Position numbers and translations under genes: made by a program. This document shows, one piece after another, positions 4,330-61,326 of a DNA stretch of 64,000 nt (the first letter of the stretch is position 1; every line of letters starts with the position of its first letter). The notes below the pieces were generated by a model. That model was not told where the DNA came from. It ran no database searches and worked only from the letters and a program-made list of their open reading frames with translations. The DNA comes from a virus (taxonomy: Duplodnaviria; Caudoviricetes), in IMG/VR virus record IMGVR_UViG_3300045821_000013, positions 1,027-65,026 of that record; one strand, given 5' to 3'.

Positions 4330-4932
4330 TTATTTTGCGCCAGGCGCGCCCTTGCCGTAACTCGCCATCACCAAATCGAACAGGGAAAGCCCCTTGTTCG
4401 TGTCGGCCTCGGAATCGAGGCTGAACGCCTTGCGCTCCAGCTCGGTCAGCGTCTTGAGCGCCGTCGACAGGTCTTTGATGACGACGGTTCGGGCATTGAG
4501 GGAAACCGCGCGGAGCATGGCCTCCCTGCGCTTTGGCGACTTGTCGCTCTTGCAGTCGGAATAAATGATGTCCTCGATCGTGAGGCGGTGATTGGAAATA
4601 TCGAGCAATTCCCGCATGAGGCGGTCAACGATATCGCGGGCCTTGGCGATATCCTTTCGGTGGCTTTTGACGACTTCCGCGCCGATTTTGCCTGCTTCTT
4701 GGACGATTTCCTCGTCCGACGTGCTGTTCGTCCCGTCTCGCACCAATCCGGCTCGCACAGCTTCGCGGACTTTCGATGTCAGGTCTTTTGTCCATCCGAG
4801 CATTTTAGCCCGTTTGCGGACTAGAGCTTCGGACATGCCGTGCTTTTTGCCTATTTCGACGTTTGAGAGTTGGCCGGCTCGATAGTCGGCTTCCACTCTC
4901 TGCCAGTCGATTTGTTTGTCTTGTCCAGCCAT
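4330..4932 (-). CDS. terS: Terminase small subunit
   Basis: N-terminal HTH IDWQRVEADYRAGQLSNVEIGKKHGMSEALVRKRAKMLGWTKDL; C-terminal LKTLTELERKAFSLD. Confidence 0.75.
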   Translation of the reverse strand: MAGQDKQIDWQRVEADYRAGQLSNVEIGKKHGMSEALVRKRAKMLGWTKDLTSKVREAVRAGLVRDGTNSTSDEEIVQEAGKIGAEVVKSHRKDIAKARDIVDRLMRELLDISNHRLTIEDIIYSDCKSDKSPKRREAMLRAVSLNARTVVIKDLSTALKTLTELERKAFSLDSEADTNKGLSLFDLVMASYGKGAPGAK

Positions 4933-5002
4933 GATGATGATGCGTGATTTGTGCGAGGCGTCGCACGGCATTGTCTCACAGGCTTGGCTTTGGGGGAAGG
5001 CG

Positions 5003-5188: not shown

Positions 5189-5391
5189 TGCAGGGTTTCC
5201 TTCGGTCCAGCGAACAACGCGTCAAGCTCCGGATCTGGCGCGCCTTGGCTGCGCCACCTCGTCAGGCGTTTGTAGCTTTCCATCACGCACTTGGAACAGG
5301 CGTGGCCGTAATAGTGGCGTTCCACGTCTGTCAGGATTGCGCCGCAGCCTGGCCCGATCATGTCGCCGAGACAAATGTAAACGTCGCTCAT
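5185..5391 (-). CDS. Small Cys-rich hypothetical protein
   Basis: MSDVYICLG...CG...ACSKC; ATGA-coupled. Confidence 0.55.
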   Translation of the reverse strand: MSDVYICLGDMIGPGCGAILTDVERHYYGHACSKCVMESYKRLTRWRSQGAPDPELDALFAGPKETLQ

Positions 5392-5648
5392 GGGTCGATG
5401 CAGTCGAAAGGCGCGCGATCCTGCGCAGCTCGGTGGCGATGGATTTGATCCATCCAAGTGTCAAAGCTGTTTTTCGCCGCGTCGTAGTTGGCGCACAGAT
5501 CGCCAAATGATATGTCGCCCTCGAAATATCCACGCTTCGACGCCACCAGATCGCGGTAACGCTCTGTGAAAACGGCATGTGCGCGCGTGATTTCAGTCGG
5601 TTCTCGCGGCGGAAAATGCGGTTCGTATTTCCTCGGCTGGTCAGGCAC
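5388..5648 (-). CDS. Hypothetical protein
   Basis: GTG start with RBS ggagtt upstream. Confidence 0.55.
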   Translation of the reverse strand: MPDQPRKYEPHFPPREPTEITRAHAVFTERYRDLVASKRGYFEGDISFGDLCANYDAAKNSFDTWMDQIHRHRAAQDRAPFDCIDP

Positions 5649-5746
5649 GATTTAACTCCGAAAGGACCGCCCGACTGTTGAGCCGGGCGGTAAGTCTAGG
5701 GAGGAAACGCCCAAGGAGGGCATTGAAACTATAGCACGGCGGCAGC

Positions 5747-5781
5747 AAAAAAGCGCCGTGTTGCGTTTGCAAAACGGCGCT
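5747..5781 (-). terminator. Intrinsic terminator
   Basis: AGCGCCGT/ACGGCGCT stem followed by a T-run on the minus strand. Confidence 0.7.
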
Positions 5782-5785
5782 GGTT

Positions 5786-5848
5786 TGGTCGGGATCGAAG
5801 GGAATTTCACCCTCCCGCGAATCGCGGCTGGCTCTCCAACAGCTCCCG
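5786..5848 (-). ncRNA. tRNA-like cloverleaf lacking an anticodon loop, 3'-ACCA
   Basis: CGGGAGC TG TTGG-AGAG-CCAG CCGCG-ATT-CGCGG GAGGG-TGAAATT-CCCTT C GATCCCG ACCA; acceptor stem with one mismatch, T-arm-like hairpin, CCA end, terminator downstream. Confidence 0.5.
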
Positions 5849-5861
5849 TTATTCCGCGTGA

Positions 5862-5891
5862 GCGGCCCCCACAGCCGTTACCCACTTTGCC
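5862..5891. repeat. 30-bp direct repeat, copy 1
   Basis: gcggcccccacagccgttacccactttgcc, identical to 6297-6326. Confidence 0.95.
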
Positions 5892-6268
5892 TAGGCCTGC
5901 TCGATCTGCCCCTGCGAATTGGCGTCGTTCGGGTGAATGGCCCGTTCGTCCTGGTTCAGCTTGCCGCCGAAAATCGCATCTTCATGCCGCGCCGGCGCCG
6001 CCGGGGCGTCGTGCTTTGCCGCCTGCCCGCGCTGATATTCCATCCAGTGGGCTTGGCCGAGTTCGACCGGCGAGGCGTCATCGTCCTGCTGGTTCAGCAC
6101 GACTCCCTGCTTTTGGAAAATGCCGAGCGGCGCGAAGATCGTCAGATCGATGGTTGCTAAGTTCACGCGCGAAATGATCGCGGGCACAGCCTGATCGCTG
6201 CGGCCGCCAGGATCGGCGTGGGTGGGATGATAGAGGACAATTCTGCCTACGGTCGGTTCGATGCTCAT
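5891..6268 (-). CDS. Conserved phage hypothetical protein (PTVGRIVxY family)
   Basis: MSIEPTVGRIVLYHP...AIISRV...IDLTIF; lies between the two 30-bp repeats. Confidence 0.7.
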   Translation of the reverse strand: MSIEPTVGRIVLYHPTHADPGGRSDQAVPAIISRVNLATIDLTIFAPLGIFQKQGVVLNQQDDDASPVELGQAHWMEYQRGQAAKHDAPAAPARHEDAIFGGKLNQDERAIHPNDANSQGQIEQA

Positions 6269-6296
6269 GCGCGATTGGCTCCAGCGTTAAATCAGG

Positions 6297-6326
6297 GCGG
6301 CCCCCACAGCCGTTACCCACTTTGCC
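6297..6326. repeat. 30-bp direct repeat, copy 2
   Basis: Identical to 5862-5891. Confidence 0.95.
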
Positions 6327-6399
6327 CAAGCTCTGGTTGCGAAAGGCGTGTGACCCCGAAGCCCTATTTAAACCTGATTTGCGCCAATTTTCAACCTGT

Positions 6400-6450
6400 T
6401 GCGTTATGTGCAATTATTGCTTGTCCTCGAACCGAAAAGGTGTAATATGT
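6400..6450 (+). promoter_or_regulatory. Divergent promoter region; putative rightward sigma70 promoter and palindromic operator
   Basis: cTTGTC-N17-TAATAT (6420-6448); palindrome GCAAT-T-ATTGC (6410-6420); AT-rich gap between divergent operons. Confidence 0.45.
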
Positions 6451-6477
6451 GCGTGTACTGAAACGCCGGAGGCTCCA

Positions 6478-6648
6478 ATGGTCGCCTATTTCTTCTACGG
6501 TCGCAAAGGCCAACTCTCCGAGTTGCACATTTGCGAACGCCCCTGCAATGGCGTCGAGTTCCAGAACGCCGAAATCGTCAAGGTTTGGGACAAGCGCGAA
6601 GCGCGCCTCGTCTGCAAGCGCCGCAACATCATCTGCTACAATTTTTAA
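6478..6648 (+). CDS. Early small hypothetical protein
   Basis: RBS ggagg before ATG 6478; MVAYFFYGRK... Confidence 0.55.
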   Translation: MVAYFFYGRKGQLSELHICERPCNGVEFQNAEIVKVWDKREARLVCKRRNIICYNF

Positions 6649-6658
6649 GGAGAACGCC

Positions 6659-6961
6659 ATGGCCGACTATCGCATCGAATTCCCCGACTTCGATCCTGCC
6701 ACGCTTCCCGCCATCCCAGCAGGGTTCAAAGACGTGTCGTGGCATAACGACGTCTGCCCCGCCTTTTTCAATTCCGCGCTGCTCCTGTCGATCTTCATCG
6801 ACTATGCCGATATGGAGCAGCGCGAATGGCCGGACACGCCGCGCTTTTACATTTTCAAATGCAATGAAGATGGATCGCGTCTTGACGAAGATAGTGGCGA
6901 TTTCGTTTCGGACGATTGGGACGCCATCATCGCCTACATTTCCGCCAACAAAAGAGCCTGA
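6659..6961 (+). CDS. Early acidic hypothetical protein
   Basis: RBS aaggagaacgccATG; MADYRIEFPDF...DVSWHNDVCP. Confidence 0.65.
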   Translation: MADYRIEFPDFDPATLPAIPAGFKDVSWHNDVCPAFFNSALLLSIFIDYADMEQREWPDTPRFYIFKCNEDGSRLDEDSGDFVSDDWDAIIAYISANKRA

Positions 6962-6973
6962 ACGGAGAACGCC

Positions 6974-7393
6974 ATGACCATCATTTTCAAATTGCTTTCG
7001 GACGGCGCTTTTGTCGCCGGAGATACCGAAAGCGGCATGACCACTTACGCCTACCCCACCAGCACCAATGCCGAAGCGGCCAAAAAACACCCCGAACGGC
7101 AATCTATCTATGCGCAAAGCATGATTGACAGCCAACGCCGGAACAATGGGATTGGCGCCGACTACGACGATGCCAATTGGCAGCGTCTCGGCGGGCGTCC
7201 CGACACGATCAAAATGGATCGCGCTATCACGCTCGAACGCCATCAGAACTACGGCGTGTTCACCTATTACCCGATCTGCGACAACGCCAAACGATTCGCC
7301 GACTTGACCGGAACCAAGACCATCACGCCGCGCGCCATGCAGATTATCCGCTCGCTCGGCTACGTCATCATCGAACGCCAACAGGAGGCTTGA
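6974..7393 (+). CDS. Early hypothetical protein
   Basis: RBS ggagaacgccATG; 139 aa. Confidence 0.65.
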   Translation: MTIIFKLLSDGAFVAGDTESGMTTYAYPTSTNAEAAKKHPERQSIYAQSMIDSQRRNNGIGADYDDANWQRLGGRPDTIKMDRAITLERHQNYGVFTYYPICDNAKRFADLTGTKTITPRAMQIIRSLGYVIIERQQEA

Positions 7394-7396
7394 GCC

Positions 7397-7615
7397 ATGA
7401 GAAACACAATCAATTACGGCGGTTTTGCTTTCCCTATCACGGAACCGACCCGGTTTACCCAGTTCGGTCTGACCGCGCGCGATTACTTCGCAGCCGCTGT
7501 TGCACCCGCTTTCGCCCCGCTTCTAGCGCCGGATTATCGCGAGGCTGCGCGCCGGGCCTATGCGCTCGCTGACGCCATGATTGCCGAGCGCGAGAGCGCC
7601 AAAACGGAGGCTTGA
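7397..7615 (+). CDS. Conserved phage protein (GxTxRDYFAA family)
   Basis: GFAFP...GLTARDYFAAA...AARRAYALADAMIAER. Confidence 0.8.
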   Translation: MRNTINYGGFAFPITEPTRFTQFGLTARDYFAAAVAPAFAPLLAPDYREAARRAYALADAMIAERESAKTEA

Positions 7616-7618
7616 GAC

Positions 7619-7747
7619 ATGCTGACGCCTCCCCGACATCAACCCATGACGCAGGCTGAACTGGAATTCGCAGTTAGCCTGCGTCTCATTCTGGCGGGGA
7701 TTGTCCTCTCCGTCATCGCCATCATTTGGTTTGGAGGGACTCCATGA
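7619..7747 (+). CDS. Small membrane peptide (42 aa, not in the ORF track)
   Basis: RBS ggagg; MLTPP...LRLILAGIVLSVIAIIWFGGTP. Confidence 0.5.
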   Translation: MLTPPRHQPMTQAELEFAVSLRLILAGIVLSVIAIIWFGGTP

Positions 7748-8121: not shown

Positions 8122-8400
8122 TCAGACCAGCCTACCAAGTGAGAGCGCATAATCGTATGGGTCTTTATTGTTTTTCCTTGAATTGCACGATTTGCAACGC
8201 AACTCTATGTTCGATGGATCGTGCATCCCGCCTCTGGTTAGCTCCGCTTGCCACGCAGATACGCGCGCTCTTTCGCATTCCGTGCATTGGCCACTACTCG
8301 TGAACCTTGGCGCTATATGCCCAAACTTACATGGCTTCCCTGTGAGATAATGCTTATCCCCAAGCAGCTTCGCCTTTTTCCAACTTGGTTGAAGCAGCAT
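8122..8400 (-). pseudogene. Internally deleted HNH endonuclease remnant
   Basis: N-terminal YLTGKPCKFGHIAPRFTSSGQCTEC joined directly to RGGMHDPSNIELRCKSCNSRK; the usual DH motif before RGG is absent; AT-rich. Confidence 0.6.
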
Positions 8401-8443
8401 GGGGACTAACCTTTGGTTAGAGAAAACGCCCCGTTTTTTATTG

Positions 8444-8779
8444 TCAGGCGTCGATGCTCGCGCGGAACGGAACAGATCGCGCGGGAGGGGCGGGTTGCCA
8501 ACGCGCAAGCCAGTCTCCATGTTCCTGCGCCAGCGCATCGAGGAATCCTCGGTTATCGCCGCTGATTTGGCCGTCCTCCTCATGCGCTCCGTGGACGCGC
8601 CGTGGATTGCACGATGGCGGTAGATTTCCCTGCTTGCGCAGGTGGTGCACGCGGCTGCGAACGTCCCTTGGGTCACGATTGATCGCGGCGGCCGTCACGC
8701 GCGCAAAATCGCCGCGCAGCGTCCCTATGATGATTACGGCGTCCTCTTGGGGCGAGAACCGGCCCTTTTTCTGTGTCAT
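8444..8779 (-). CDS. Myb/GcrA-like HTH protein
   Basis: RFSPQEDAVII...AAAINRDPRDVRSRVHHL. Confidence 0.5.
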   Translation of the reverse strand: MTQKKGRFSPQEDAVIIIGTLRGDFARVTAAAINRDPRDVRSRVHHLRKQGNLPPSCNPRRVHGAHEEDGQISGDNRGFLDALAQEHGDWLARWQPAPPARSVPFRASIDA

Positions 8780-47948: not shown

Positions 47949-48514
47949 CCATCACGCCCTTCCGCGATTTGCGTGAAACCGCTACTGGATTCGAGAAGCG
48001 ATTGCGCGAGGTCTGGTTTTCCTGCCGTCGCCAGCGACAGCACACGCGCGAGCAGTTCAACCACGGCCTGGCGAAACAGGGCGTCCCATGTCGACTCTGC
48101 CGGATTGGCATTGAAGATGGCTTGCGCATTGGCCTGATTTGTCCAGATTACACGGCTTTGCGTCCCGCCTACGAGATTGCTTCCGTCAATCCAGTTGATT
48201 GGAAGCGGGTCATTCGGATCGGCGAGCGCCGCCGGCGCCAGTTGCCAAATCTGAACGCATTGCGCCGGGTAGGAATATTCATAAGCCCATGGAAATGGAG
48301 CCGCATTTCCGGTGACGACAAGCGCCTTGACCGTCCTGGCAAAGCCCCATTCGTATTGGCGGGCGACGGCGGCGACGGTCGGCGCATAAAGGTTCTGGAG
48401 CGCCTTTCCATTGGTCGATGAATCGAACGTCGGAGCCACGCCGGAAACCGCCGGCTGATTTCCGCCCATTAGTTGGACGGCTTGATTGGCTATGGTGTTC
48501 GATGTGACGGTCAT
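47945..48514 (-). CDS. Tail tubular protein A / adaptor paralog 1
   Basis: TIANQAVQLMG...WGFART...YEYSYPAQC...DALFRQAVVELLA. Confidence 0.75.
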   Translation of the reverse strand: MTVTSNTIANQAVQLMGGNQPAVSGVAPTFDSSTNGKALQNLYAPTVAAVARQYEWGFARTVKALVVTGNAAPFPWAYEYSYPAQCVQIWQLAPAALADPNDPLPINWIDGSNLVGGTQSRVIWTNQANAQAIFNANPAESTWDALFRQAVVELLARVLSLATAGKPDLAQSLLESSSGFTQIAEGRDG

Positions 48515-55396: not shown

Positions 55397-56440
55397 TTAC
55401 GAAACGACGGATTCGGTGTTCAGGATCTGGTCGATGATCTTCCACGGAATCCCACGGAAGCTGTCGACCGGGCGGCCGGCGTAGTCGTCAATGCGCAGCA
55501 ACACGTTGCGGTCGCGCATCGCCTGCACGTCCGCCCAATGGCGCATCGTGCGATTGGTGTAGATGACCGTGCGGACGGAAGGTTCGTCGCGCGGCGCATC
55601 GGACTTGACGACGCCGGAAGTCGACTTGGACAGCTTCGGAAACAGCAAAAGCTGCTGCGCGATCAGCGCGAAGATATCGGGCGCGTTGGGACCTGCCAGG
55701 CCCGCCGTCGTCACGTCGATGTTCGCAATGCGCGAACCGTAACGCCAGTCCTTCGGGCAAAGCCCGGCCTGCTGACGGAACCAGCTCGTATAAGCCTCGA
55801 ACCGATTGCCGAGCGCGTCGAAAGCCGGGGTCGTATCGCCCTTGTCCTCCATGTCGAGGCCCGCCTTGGAGCCGCGCGGATAAAGGCCAAAGATGGTTTC
55901 CGGCGACCAGCCGATAAGCCAGAGCGACGTGTTGGACGATCCGGTGCCGCCGGCATTGATGACGTTGGCCGCGTTCTGCGCGTTGTTGAGATTGACGGTG
56001 TTGTAGAAGGGCGTCAGGCCCATGAACGCCGCCGGATTGGTGACGGTGTTGCCGTAAAGGAAGGTTTCGGCAATGGTCTGCGACATGCCTTCGAGAAAGG
56101 CCACGTCCTCGGACTCGCGGAACTTTTCCTTGTCGCCGGAATGTTCGGCGAGAGCGCGGTCGACCTGGCTGTAATCTTCCAGCATCCCAAGGCCGACGCG
56201 CGCCTTGGCGGTGGTCGACTTGCTGTAGGGGACACCCTGATTATAGCCGCGCCACGAACCGGCGGGGATCGAGGTGCGAAACACGAATTCATGGCCCGTC
56301 GCTTCATTCGCTTCAACCCACGGAACATCGTCCGTGTAGTCATTCGACTGCGAGAGCATTTCCGCGATGACCGGAATCTTGCCTTCCGGATCGAGGCGGG
56401 TCGAAAGATCGAGGAGTGACGGCCATTGCCCTGTTGCCAA
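55397..56440 (-). CDS. Major capsid protein (TTG start)
   Basis: RBS taggagg; IAEMLSQSNDYTDDVPWVEAN...RTSIPAGSWRGYNQGV...SEDVAFLEGMSQ...FRGIP; BPP-1-like. Confidence 0.88.
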   Translation of the reverse strand: MATGQWPSLLDLSTRLDPEGKIPVIAEMLSQSNDYTDDVPWVEANEATGHEFVFRTSIPAGSWRGYNQGVPYSKSTTAKARVGLGMLEDYSQVDRALAEHSGDKEKFRESEDVAFLEGMSQTIAETFLYGNTVTNPAAFMGLTPFYNTVNLNNAQNAANVINAGGTGSSNTSLWLIGWSPETIFGLYPRGSKAGLDMEDKGDTTPAFDALGNRFEAYTSWFRQQAGLCPKDWRYGSRIANIDVTTAGLAGPNAPDIFALIAQQLLLFPKLSKSTSGVVKSDAPRDEPSVRTVIYTNRTMRHWADVQAMRDRNVLLRIDDYAGRPVDSFRGIPWKIIDQILNTESVVS

Positions 56441-59499: not shown

Positions 59500-61326
59500 C
59501 TATTGCGCGCCGCCGCCAATTCCCATGAGAGCGCCAAGCCCATTGTTCCCGCCGGGAAGCTGCGTCTCCGATAAGGTCTTTGCCGCTTGAACGCCTGCCA
59601 TCGCCTGTTGCGGAGCTTGTGCTTTCGCCATTTCCTGTTCACGGATCTTGTCGTGCTGTTTCACTTCGTCCTCGGTGAACATGCAATCGGACGGGAAGTT
59701 GTTCAGATCGCCATATTTGCGCGCGGCCTTGTCGAGATTGATGACGCGGATCGGGTCAGGGACGCCAGCCGCCTTGGCGGCGCTGGATAGTTCTCCCAAG
59801 GTCTGGAATACGTCTTTCATGGCGACGGAACCGGCGCTGCGCATGGCCTGCCGCATCAAGCCCTCGAACGTCAGTTTGAGCGGAACGCCATGCAGGCTTT
59901 TCGGCATGGGTGCGAGTAGCCGCCGGCGCTGCGCTATGTCCATCACGCGATGGATGCAGATTGCAAGCTCGTTCTCTATCAGTTCAATGACCGGCCCAAG
60001 TTTCTGGAGGCGCTCCAGATCGCGCTTGGTCAATTCCAGTTCGTTGCGAGGCTGAACGCCTTGCATCTGTGTGATCGCCATGAACACGTCGACATAGAGG
60101 GCTTTTTCGATGCGGGCGTTCACCTTGTCGATATCGGCGATGATCGCGTTCAATCCAACAGGATTCGGTTCGAACAGGGGGAAATAGCCCTTCTTGCCGC
60201 CCGACGTGTCCACATAGGTCGTCTGGCCCGGCAGGATGCTCGAAGGCTCATTCTTCATGGAAGGATCGGCGCCCATGGGCGGCCGCACAAACTTTTCGAT
60301 AAGCTCGGCCTTGCGCAGCGTTTCCTTCTGCACTTGCTTGTTGTCTCCAAGCGCGTCCATGCAAGGCGAGCGGCCATAGGAATCGTTCGAGACACGCGAC
60401 CAGATAAATGTGAAAAATGGACGTGAGTTGAATCCCCGGCGCGAAAGCGGCTCATCGCATTTCATGCCCTTGAGCCAATAAATTTCCCGATAGACGAAAG
60501 AGCCTGGCAGGACTTTGACGGTCTTTCGGCCATCAGATCCGGACAGTTCAAAATTTGGCTCGATCATATGGCCGACGACAAATTCTTGATCGTGTGAGCC
60601 GGCTCCAGCCGCCCACAGCGATTTCACGTCCTGCGGGCATTTCTCAAGCCCGAACATTTCCACGATCTGCTGAACCGTCAGCGTGAATTCACGGATATGC
60701 GTGTCCGTCGACATGCGCGCGCCGACCTTGAGATAATATTCCCCGGCGCAGGGCAGATAGAACCGCACAATTTCGTCATAGTCCTCGTAGCAGATGACTG
60801 GCGCCGTCCCGAAAACCGTCACGTCCTCGAACGCCTGCGCCATGATCGTGTAGAAATTCGATTTCGACAGGATCGTGAACACATCGGACGCGATGCCGTC
60901 GACCCAAATCTTGCCGTCCGGTTCAAGTTGAAAATTCTCGTCCTGCGGTTCGACCTTGAACCATTGGCGCGTTGGGTTCGTCAAACCGGCCCACATGCCG
61001 CTGGAGCATGTGTTGACAGCGAGCGCGCCGGTCGCGTCGATGATGTTGTCATTGATCGCGGAGCCGCGATTCATGCGGTTCGCGGTGACAAGCCAGTGAT
61101 ATCGCCTCGGTTTGAAAAACTCGGCCAGGCGCGCCCAATGCGCCCACCATGAATAGCGCCACGATCGAGCGGACGCCAAAGATCCTTCCAGATGGGTGTA
61201 AATCACGTCCCATCCGTCGCTGTCCTTCGGCGTTTTGTCTTTCGGCGTTACGGGCTGCTGCGCGAGCAAACTCGGCCCCATTTGCTCATAGGTCGCAAAG
61301 CTGTTTGAGGCCATGTCATTCATCAA
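59500..61326 (-). CDS. Portal (head-tail connector) protein, T7/Bbp21 family
   Basis: IIDATGALAVNTCSSGMWAGLTNPTRQWF, FGTAPV, YGRSPCMDALGD, ELTKRDLERLQKLGPVIE. Confidence 0.9.
   Translation of the reverse strand: MMNDMASNSFATYEQMGPSLLAQQPVTPKDKTPKDSDGWDVIYTHLEGSLASARSWRYSWWAHWARLAEFFKPRRYHWLVTANRMNRGSAINDNIIDATGALAVNTCSSGMWAGLTNPTRQWFKVEPQDENFQLEPDGKIWVDGIASDVFTILSKSNFYTIMAQAFEDVTVFGTAPVICYEDYDEIVRFYLPCAGEYYLKVGARMSTDTHIREFTLTVQQIVEMFGLEKCPQDVKSLWAAGAGSHDQEFVVGHMIEPNFELSGSDGRKTVKVLPGSFVYREIYWLKGMKCDEPLSRRGFNSRPFFTFIWSRVSNDSYGRSPCMDALGDNKQVQKETLRKAELIEKFVRPPMGADPSMKNEPSSILPGQTTYVDTSGGKKGYFPLFEPNPVGLNAIIADIDKVNARIEKALYVDVFMAITQMQGVQPRNELELTKRDLERLQKLGPVIELIENELAICIHRVMDIAQRRRLLAPMPKSLHGVPLKLTFEGLMRQAMRSAGSVAMKDVFQTLGELSSAAKAAGVPDPIRVINLDKAARKYGDLNNFPSDCMFTEDEVKQHDKIREQEMAKAQAPQQAMAGVQAAKTLSETQLPGGNNGLGALMGIGGGAQ

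Follow-up and report, generated by a model that had tools for sequence, protein, structure and literature searches.

A compact anticodon-less cloverleaf ending in ACCA in the 3' untranslated region of a phage gene: a candidate tRNA relic

Introduction

Phage tRNAs are now regarded as tools against tRNA-cleaving host defences and codon bias. Bacterial tRNA genes usually encode their NCCA end and are closed by a terminator, and tRNA 3' ends are frequently copied in the attP cores of phages. Parts of the tRNA shape also occur in RNAs that do not decode. For instance, mascRNA and MEN-beta (RF01684) are tRNA-like small RNAs of vertebrate long non-coding RNAs, and they serve as the model for release by RNase P and for a CCA end on such molecules. 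The tRNA-like domain of tmRNA combines an acceptor stem, a T arm and A73-CCA, and has no anticodon arm. Furthermore, the C4 RNA of P1 and P7 (RF01695), whose precursor is an RNase P substrate, pairs with its targets through two loops, and pemK (RF02913) is a Firmicutes motif linked to mobile-element genes.

The element described here is a 63-nt cloverleaf in the genome of a tailed phage. With phage tRNAs and pseudo-tRNAs it shares the four helices, an encoded NCCA followed by a terminator, sequence blocks of the D arm and T stem, and a place in a variable accessory region, relatives of the phage carrying single tRNAs. It differs from them in its length, in its 3-nt 'anticodon' loop, 4-nt D loop and missing variable loop, and in a T loop that reads TGAAATT rather than TTCRAAT; it also falls below every tRNA detector threshold. 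Like mascRNA and MEN-beta, it appears to be a non-decoding cloverleaf of about 60 nt at the 3' end of a longer transcript, but those RNAs are eukaryotic, their T loop is normal and their anticodon-like loop measures 7 nt, and their family does not match the element in Rfam. The acceptor stem, T arm, A73-CCA and lack of an anticodon arm are common to the element and tmRNA, whereas the G3.U70 pair, tag reading frame and pseudoknots of the latter are missing. With C4 it has in common that it is a small phage RNA, but it offers no match in sequence or structure, no paired target boxes and no immunity operon. The likeness to pemK lies in two adjacent hairpins, CCGNNAUUCNCGG (also given as CCGCGAUUCGCGG) and GGGUGAAAUUCCC, at 5800-5827 on the minus strand, which follow the consensus nearly letter for letter. 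Pseudo-tRNAs and tRNA-like RNAs are known as such; what is unusual about the present variant is that its cloverleaf of 63 nt lacks an anticodon, ends in CCA and lies in the 3' UTR of a phage gene.

Results

Phage genome and gene layout

The window, that is, the whole stretch of 64,000 nt that was analysed, covers bases 1027-65026 of a 65,026-nt IMG/VR virus record whose completeness is rated 100%. The host of the phage is an alphaproteobacterium. In the window, all ORFs of at least 330 aa that were taken as genes lie on the minus strand, which also encodes a primase and a ParB-like protein. The complete 65-kb record holds no tyrosine integrase, and no antiterminator protein or NusG-like gene was found in the window's phage. 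The landmarks used below are the following.

4330-4971, minus strand: terminase-small-subunit-like protein (window annotation)
8122-8676, minus strand: protein with an HNH endonuclease domain (Pfam HNH, 22.5 bits)
55397-56440, minus strand: major head protein (window annotation)
59500-61326, minus strand: portal (window annotation)

The HNH gene sits amid small genes between the primase and an operon of 4-5 short ORFs at 6483-7620 on the plus strand, the rest of the genome being on the minus strand. A ribosome-binding block, GGAGAACGCCATG or GGAGGCTTGAGCCATG, stands almost unchanged in front of each ORF of this operon, and those of its products that were compared with Pfam or PHROGs had no match. 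A leftward transcription unit, with ORF125 as its first gene, begins just left of the operon; its start and the operon start at 6483 were placed by reading ribosome-binding sites.

Anatomy and fold of the element

The initial annotation had described a 63-nt anticodon-less RNA with an ACCA end on the minus strand, followed by an intrinsic terminator. Both the coordinates and the anatomy proved correct, each of the listed features being found at its position.

5786-5848, minus strand: compact cloverleaf of 63 nt with an ACCA end and no anticodon loop (sequence, MFE fold)
5781-5785, minus strand: AACCA linker with a second CCA, its last base already paired in the terminator stem (sequence, fold)
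5746-5781, minus strand: intrinsic terminator, an extended hairpin (5781-5752) followed by U6 at 5751-5746 (fold)
5652-5728, minus strand: sRNA gene of the mmgR/suhB (alpha-r8) type (Rfam RF00519, 55.2 bits against a gathering threshold of 41)

The acceptor-like stem pairs CGGGAGC (5848-5842) with GATCCCG (5796-5790) with one G.A mismatch and is followed by T8-G9. The D-like arm is TTGG-AGAG-CCAG, the middle arm CCGCG-ATT-CGCGG with its 3-nt loop, and the T-like arm GAGGG-TGAAATT-CCCTT. ACCA occupies 5789-5786 and runs straight into AACCA. Two details were absent from the earlier description, namely an unpaired C (5797) that separates the T-like stem from the 3' strand of the acceptor, and the second CCA in the linker. 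The terminator is real as well: its hairpin has an energy of -19.7 kcal/mol (z = -3.63), is kept when folded in context and is followed by six U.

The cloverleaf is the MFE structure of 5848-5786 (-25.1 kcal/mol) and is retained when folded within a 161-nt context. It dominates the ensemble, with pair probabilities of 0.75-0.99 across the four helices, all of which are intact, and the junction leaves 1-3 bases unpaired. The D arm can also form a GCU/AGC stem that closes a 7-nt loop, at 2.7 kcal/mol above the MFE fold.

Chance level of the fold

Such a fold might arise by accident. The element would then be an ordinary GC-rich 3' UTR, without tRNA ancestry or role, and several measurements agree with this. 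The fold energy is ordinary: z is -1.3 for the element by itself and -1.76 when its context is included, and 18 in 200 shuffled sequences fold equally well. A loose scan of both strands for a 7-bp stem (at least 6 paired) plus NCCA enclosing three hairpins gave 12 loci in the window against 10.2 +/- 1.9 in dinucleotide shuffles. Under a tight definition that asks for perfect hairpins and no more than 3 unpaired bases, and that was set post hoc around this element, it is the single locus in the window, against 0.04 per shuffled genome, and this speaks against an accident. So does the exact placement between a stop codon and a terminator that is described next.

ORF125, a direct repeat and an ancestral stop codon

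The cloverleaf falls in the 3' UTR of ORF125, whose surroundings comprise the following features.

6297-6331, minus strand: direct repeat copy 1, in the leader of ORF125 (sequence)
5891-6268, minus strand: ORF125, 125 aa, phrog_2293 (E = 8.8e-14), function unknown
5862-5896, minus strand: direct repeat copy 2, within the 3' end of ORF125 (sequence, alignment of relatives)
5849-5851, minus strand: TAA, ancestral stop of ORF125 (C-termini of relatives, same-frame reading of the window)

The two copies of the repeat, 30-35 nt in length, flank ORF125, and the second supplies its present stop, TAG at 5893-5891. Two close relatives of ORF125 in the protein database, P0002 and P0003 (79-91% identical), terminate in ...IEQAEESA(H/R)AE, where the window in the ORF125 frame reads ...IEQA*AKWVTAVGAAHAE*. 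P0002 is encoded on a JGI contig of 5,065 nt and P0003 on Logan/ENA sequence of up to 2,897 nt, and the identical ORF125 occurs on five other contigs. Repeat copy 2 is therefore taken as an insertion into the end of ORF125 that brought the TAG with it. With TAA 5851-5849 as the ancestral stop, which abuts the first base of the cloverleaf, the cloverleaf and the AACCA linker exactly occupy the space from stop to terminator. The insertion shifted the stop 42 nt away from the cloverleaf.

A consensus scan of 5200-6800 found no sigma-70 promoter, so the cloverleaf is presumably co-transcribed with ORF125. An ORF at 5885-5652 was considered as a coding alternative and rejected, as it passes through the terminator and the Rfam-validated sRNA.

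Tests against known RNA families

ARAGORN reported 0 tRNA and 0 tmRNA genes in the window, permuted forms included. Searches of Rfam 15 at E<=10 with 351 nt and with 76 nt gave no match to tRNA, tmRNA, C4, mascRNA, viral TLS or YrlA, the detection threshold for RF00005 being 29 bits in Infernal. These two checks, both suggested along with the initial annotation, thus called no tRNA or tRNA-like family at the element, and its proposal of a C4-like regulator found no backing in either Rfam search.

Compared feature by feature with a tRNA, the element is uneven. Its acceptor end is tRNA-like, with 6 of 7 pairs formed (G.A at 6:67), A73, CCA at 5788-5786 and one extra unpaired C. The block AGCT(..)GTTGG(.)AGAGC aligns to the common D arm minus 3 bases; in the MFE fold its GG is paired and the loop has 4 nt. 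The T loop, UGAAAUU, fits at U54, R57, A58 and G53-C61 and carries G and A at positions 55 and 56; owing to this lack of T-Psi-C, a tRNA elbow is not assured. The middle arm closes on only three nucleotides, AUU, where a tRNA would have a 7-nt anticodon loop with U33, and consequently there is no anticodon.

A tRNA-Pro identity cannot be assigned either. C1:G72 and A73 are present, but the anticodon bases G35/G36, the major determinant for ProRS, are absent, and the best-aligned isotypes are mixed. A tmRNA reading was ruled out by ARAGORN, and the third pair is G3-C. Two further candidates were dropped: a fragment of a cobalamin riboswitch, prompted by GGTGAAATTCC, had no Rfam match, and membership in the pemK motif reached 11.3 bits against a gathering threshold of 34.8 (E = 3.9) with 19 model positions missing. 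The pemK likeness is taken to reflect chance or a common T-loop-type hairpin and not family membership.

Sequence similarity to tRNAs

The element was globally aligned to the tRNAs called by ARAGORN in the phage loci collected for this analysis. It scores 60-63 against real phage tRNAs, and random 63-mers of the same genome reach 39.5 +/- 4. The blocks held in common are CGGG, AGCT(..)GTTGG(.)AGAGC, GAGGGT..GAA.TCCCTTCG and CCCG.(A)CCA. In a genome-wide ranking by this score the element is among the top two loci, but two or three coding loci of the same genome attain comparable gap-tolerant scores by chance, a point in favour of an accidental likeness.

A stricter comparison used 262 decoys, cloverleaf-plus-NCCA sequences harvested from 203 shuffled genomes. 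Against 14 tRNAs, one decoy in the 262 (0.4%) attains the score of the element; against 865 phage tRNAs, 0-0.8% do so, depending on which of two scoring schemes and three statistics is applied. The similarity to tRNAs thus exceeds that of fold-matched decoys. As short decoys of this kind arise about 1.3 times per shuffled genome and 0.4% match tRNAs this well, the joint event is expected about 0.005 times per genome, which weighs against chance. Moreover, other cloverleaf-plus-NCCA matches scoring at least 60 in 2.36 Mb of real phage DNA were, judged by eye, almost all tRNA-related (tRNAs, apparent pseudo-tRNAs and antisense tRNAs), the background staying at or below 59.

The similarity has its limits. 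It requires about 10 gaps, and a strict local alignment of the element to tRNAs falls short of significance (6% tail). When the sequences are aligned, the positions that make up the D-like and middle helices differ from those that form the same helices in tRNA, and the centre of the element may not be homologous to tRNA. The best-aligning tRNAs are of mixed isotype, namely Ile, Pro, Lys and Gly. On balance, the aligned sequence suggests that the element probably descends from a tRNA. The term tRNA-like, as used in the initial annotation, holds for the cloverleaf, for ACCA and for the D-arm, T-arm and acceptor blocks that go beyond decoys, and fails in that no detector calls the element and its T loop lacks T-Psi-C.

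A 71-nt sequence in another phage locus (L196, 2551-2621, minus strand) was noted in passing. It is an apparent tRNA-Gly(GCC) with a disrupted T arm and a TCCA end, is not listed by ARAGORN and seems to be a pseudo-tRNA missed by standard detection.

Relatives and homologue searches

Searches of IMG/VR, JGI metagenomes, GTDB genomes and GenBank phages retrieved nothing homologous to the element. Its exact and gapped DNA patterns gave 0 matches in IMG/VR, or 13 chance-like ones that were mostly in coding DNA. A covariance model, R1, was built from the single sequence on which the evidence for the element rests. It found nothing convincing in the window, in the loci of ORF125 homologues or in 72 viral and 48 metagenomic mmgR loci; among five whole phages of the same group it gave one match, in G006, which has 19.5 bits, lies inside a gene and lacks a CCA. 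Scans based on ORF125 retrieved only relatives at 33-36%, none with the element; a scan with the terminase small subunit retrieved zero relatives; and blastn against GenBank phages returned the mmgR core only.

The five phages came from a portal search; they are complete, belong to the same group and have portal identities of 54-64%. Collinearity with the window was checked for G004 and holds for its virion module. All five lack the element. Among them, G004 and G008 each have a single ordinary tRNA outside the conserved regions, tRNA-Gly(TCC) in the former and tRNA-Arg(TCT) in the latter, and tRNA genes have therefore been gained and lost in the variable regions of this lineage.

In the G004 provirus (L285), a NusG-like protein is encoded at 1985-2608 on the minus strand (Pfam NusG, E = 2.8e-10). 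The tRNA-Gly(TCC), at 1498-1569 on the same strand, lies two genes downstream of it and has an odd D arm and an Rfam score of 35.5 bits. A shared origin of this site with the element, by way of the gene upstream of the tRNA, was discarded, the proteins being unrelated.

A distant contig, L003, has an ORF125 homologue beside tRNA-Met and tRNA-Thr (1650-2727) and an mmgR-like gene, and so clusters the same three kinds of element: an ORF125 homologue, a tRNA and an mmgR-like gene. In G008 (locus L283), the ORF125 homologue, at 48014-48289 of G008, directly follows the portal gene. The ORF125-type gene (phrog_2293) is mobile within these genomes.

Discussion

A proposed tRNA remnant at the end of the ORF125 message

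The preferred reading, with a probability of roughly 45%, is that the element is a remodelled, non-decoding tRNA relic and today gives the ORF125 transcript its structured 3' end. A tRNA gene would have been stripped and rebuilt into a minimal four-helix cloverleaf. Of that gene, the acceptor with its NCCA end, the T stem and some of the D arm would remain; its D and anticodon loops would have shrunk along with the variable region, and the T loop would have passed from TTCRAAT to TGAAATT. The product would be transcribed as the untranslated 3' tail of the ORF125 message, which would stop at the terminator at 5781-5746. The element cannot decode, and today it would most likely be a relic with, at most, a role in cis as a stable structured 3' module or a processing mark. 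If it is processed at all, we infer a cut by RNase P between 5849 and 5848 and subsequent trimming to CCA.

As a relic, the element would show how far a tRNA gene can shrink and yet keep its cloverleaf, and it would serve as a warning that such remnants evade standard tRNA finders. If it is functional, the tRNA shape alone would be useful to the virus, as a processing mark, a stabiliser or a decoy.

The accidental origin considered above is somewhat unlikely. The silence of the tRNA detectors and the lack of a homologue in the collections searched are in keeping with it, along with the ordinary fold energy, the loose-scan counts and the coding loci of equal similarity. The rarity of the joint decoy and tRNA match, the tight fold and the placement after the ancestral stop argue the other way.

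A possible RNA acting in trans

A putative mini-tRNA mimic acting in trans is unlikely. RNase P would release it and trimming would leave CCA, and the stable 63-nt RNA would occupy a tRNA-binding protein of the host or of its defences; a CCA-adding enzyme, a modification enzyme, a tRNA-sensing or tRNA-cleaving defence or a synthetase may be the target. Four intact helices around a tight junction, kept despite heavy shortening, are not what neutral gene decay predicts, and they hint at selection, in favour of a functional RNA. In addition, the loop UGAAA fits the U1...A5 rule of T-loop motifs, the hairpin GGGUGAAAUUCCC is identical to the consensus hairpin of the pemK motif (a weak match), and the order of encoded NCCA and terminator is that of bacterial tRNA genes.

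Against a mimic, C56 is missing and G18/G19 are paired in the MFE fold, which renders the tRNA elbow, read by RNase P and many tRNA enzymes, doubtful. Having no anticodon, the element cannot serve as a decoy for anticodon nucleases or for synthetases that read the anticodon, ProRS among them. It is also present in a single copy and missing from the five same-group phages. The model in its full form, in which the CCA-ended, anticodon-less mini-tRNA would be released from the first leftward message and would tie up a tRNA-binding enzyme or defence, is decidedly unlikely. If it were true, the element would be a bacterial-virus counterpart of mascRNA.

Possible regulation in cis or through the neighbouring sRNA

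Some other regulatory RNA, linked to the terminator or to the neighbouring gene, is very unlikely. The element could modulate termination at 5781-5746, perhaps in the manner of a processive-antitermination RNA placed before the long series of leftward genes, or it could be a GGAG-rich target or sponge for the alpha-r8 sRNA, which bears CCUCC. Its location suits the former role: it heads the leftward string, two terminators follow at once, the terminase-small-subunit-like gene lies farther downstream, and the virion genes are also downstream if the genome is read as circularly permuted. The absence of an antiterminator or NusG-like gene from this phage counts against it. For the latter role, GGAG occurs three times in the 63 nt of the element, a density that only 0.4% of windows reach, and the sRNA gene adjoins; but the motifs are buried in helices, and the predicted duplex of element and sRNA has an ordinary energy (32nd percentile of genome windows), on which ground specific pairing of the two was rejected. 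Furthermore, no comparable element precedes an mmgR-like locus in any of the 72 viral or 48 metagenomic contigs.

C4 and attachment-site readings

An antisense regulator processed by RNase P in the style of P1/P7 immunity is highly improbable: the general analogy (a phage RNA that is small and structured, has an acceptor-like stem and carries CCA) is opposed by the missing Rfam match, by loops of 4, 3 and 7 nt, which are too short for two-loop target pairing of the C4 kind, and by the failure to see an icd/ant-type operon downstream. That the element is the remnant of an attachment site, the 3' part of a host tRNA carried in attP, is almost certainly wrong: such copies are frequent in phages, but the record has no tyrosine integrase, the element comprises a 5' as well as a 3' half and has a T loop unlike that of any real tRNA, and no host tRNA with a 3' end identical to 5814-5786 was found.

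The neighbouring alpha-r8 sRNA

The sRNA gene lies immediately downstream of the terminator and is separate from the cloverleaf; its own fold has z = -5.8. On its 3' side, small ORFs and then the terminase-small-subunit-like gene follow. No description of phage-borne alpha-r8 sRNAs was found in the literature searched. The exact 28-nt core of this sRNA (CCTCCTTGGGCG...TAGACTT) is shared by 72 IMG/VR contigs and by two named phages, ppBeUSDA76-1 of Bradyrhizobium and the 'Microcystis' phage Mwe-JY08. Among the loci collected, mmgR-like sequences lie at about 1500 in L007, at about 1500 in L008, at 816-894 in L003 and in L022-L093, usually with a terminator 5' of the core. The core stands upstream of HNH/terminase genes in the Bradyrhizobium phage and upstream of the terminase-small-subunit-like gene in the window.
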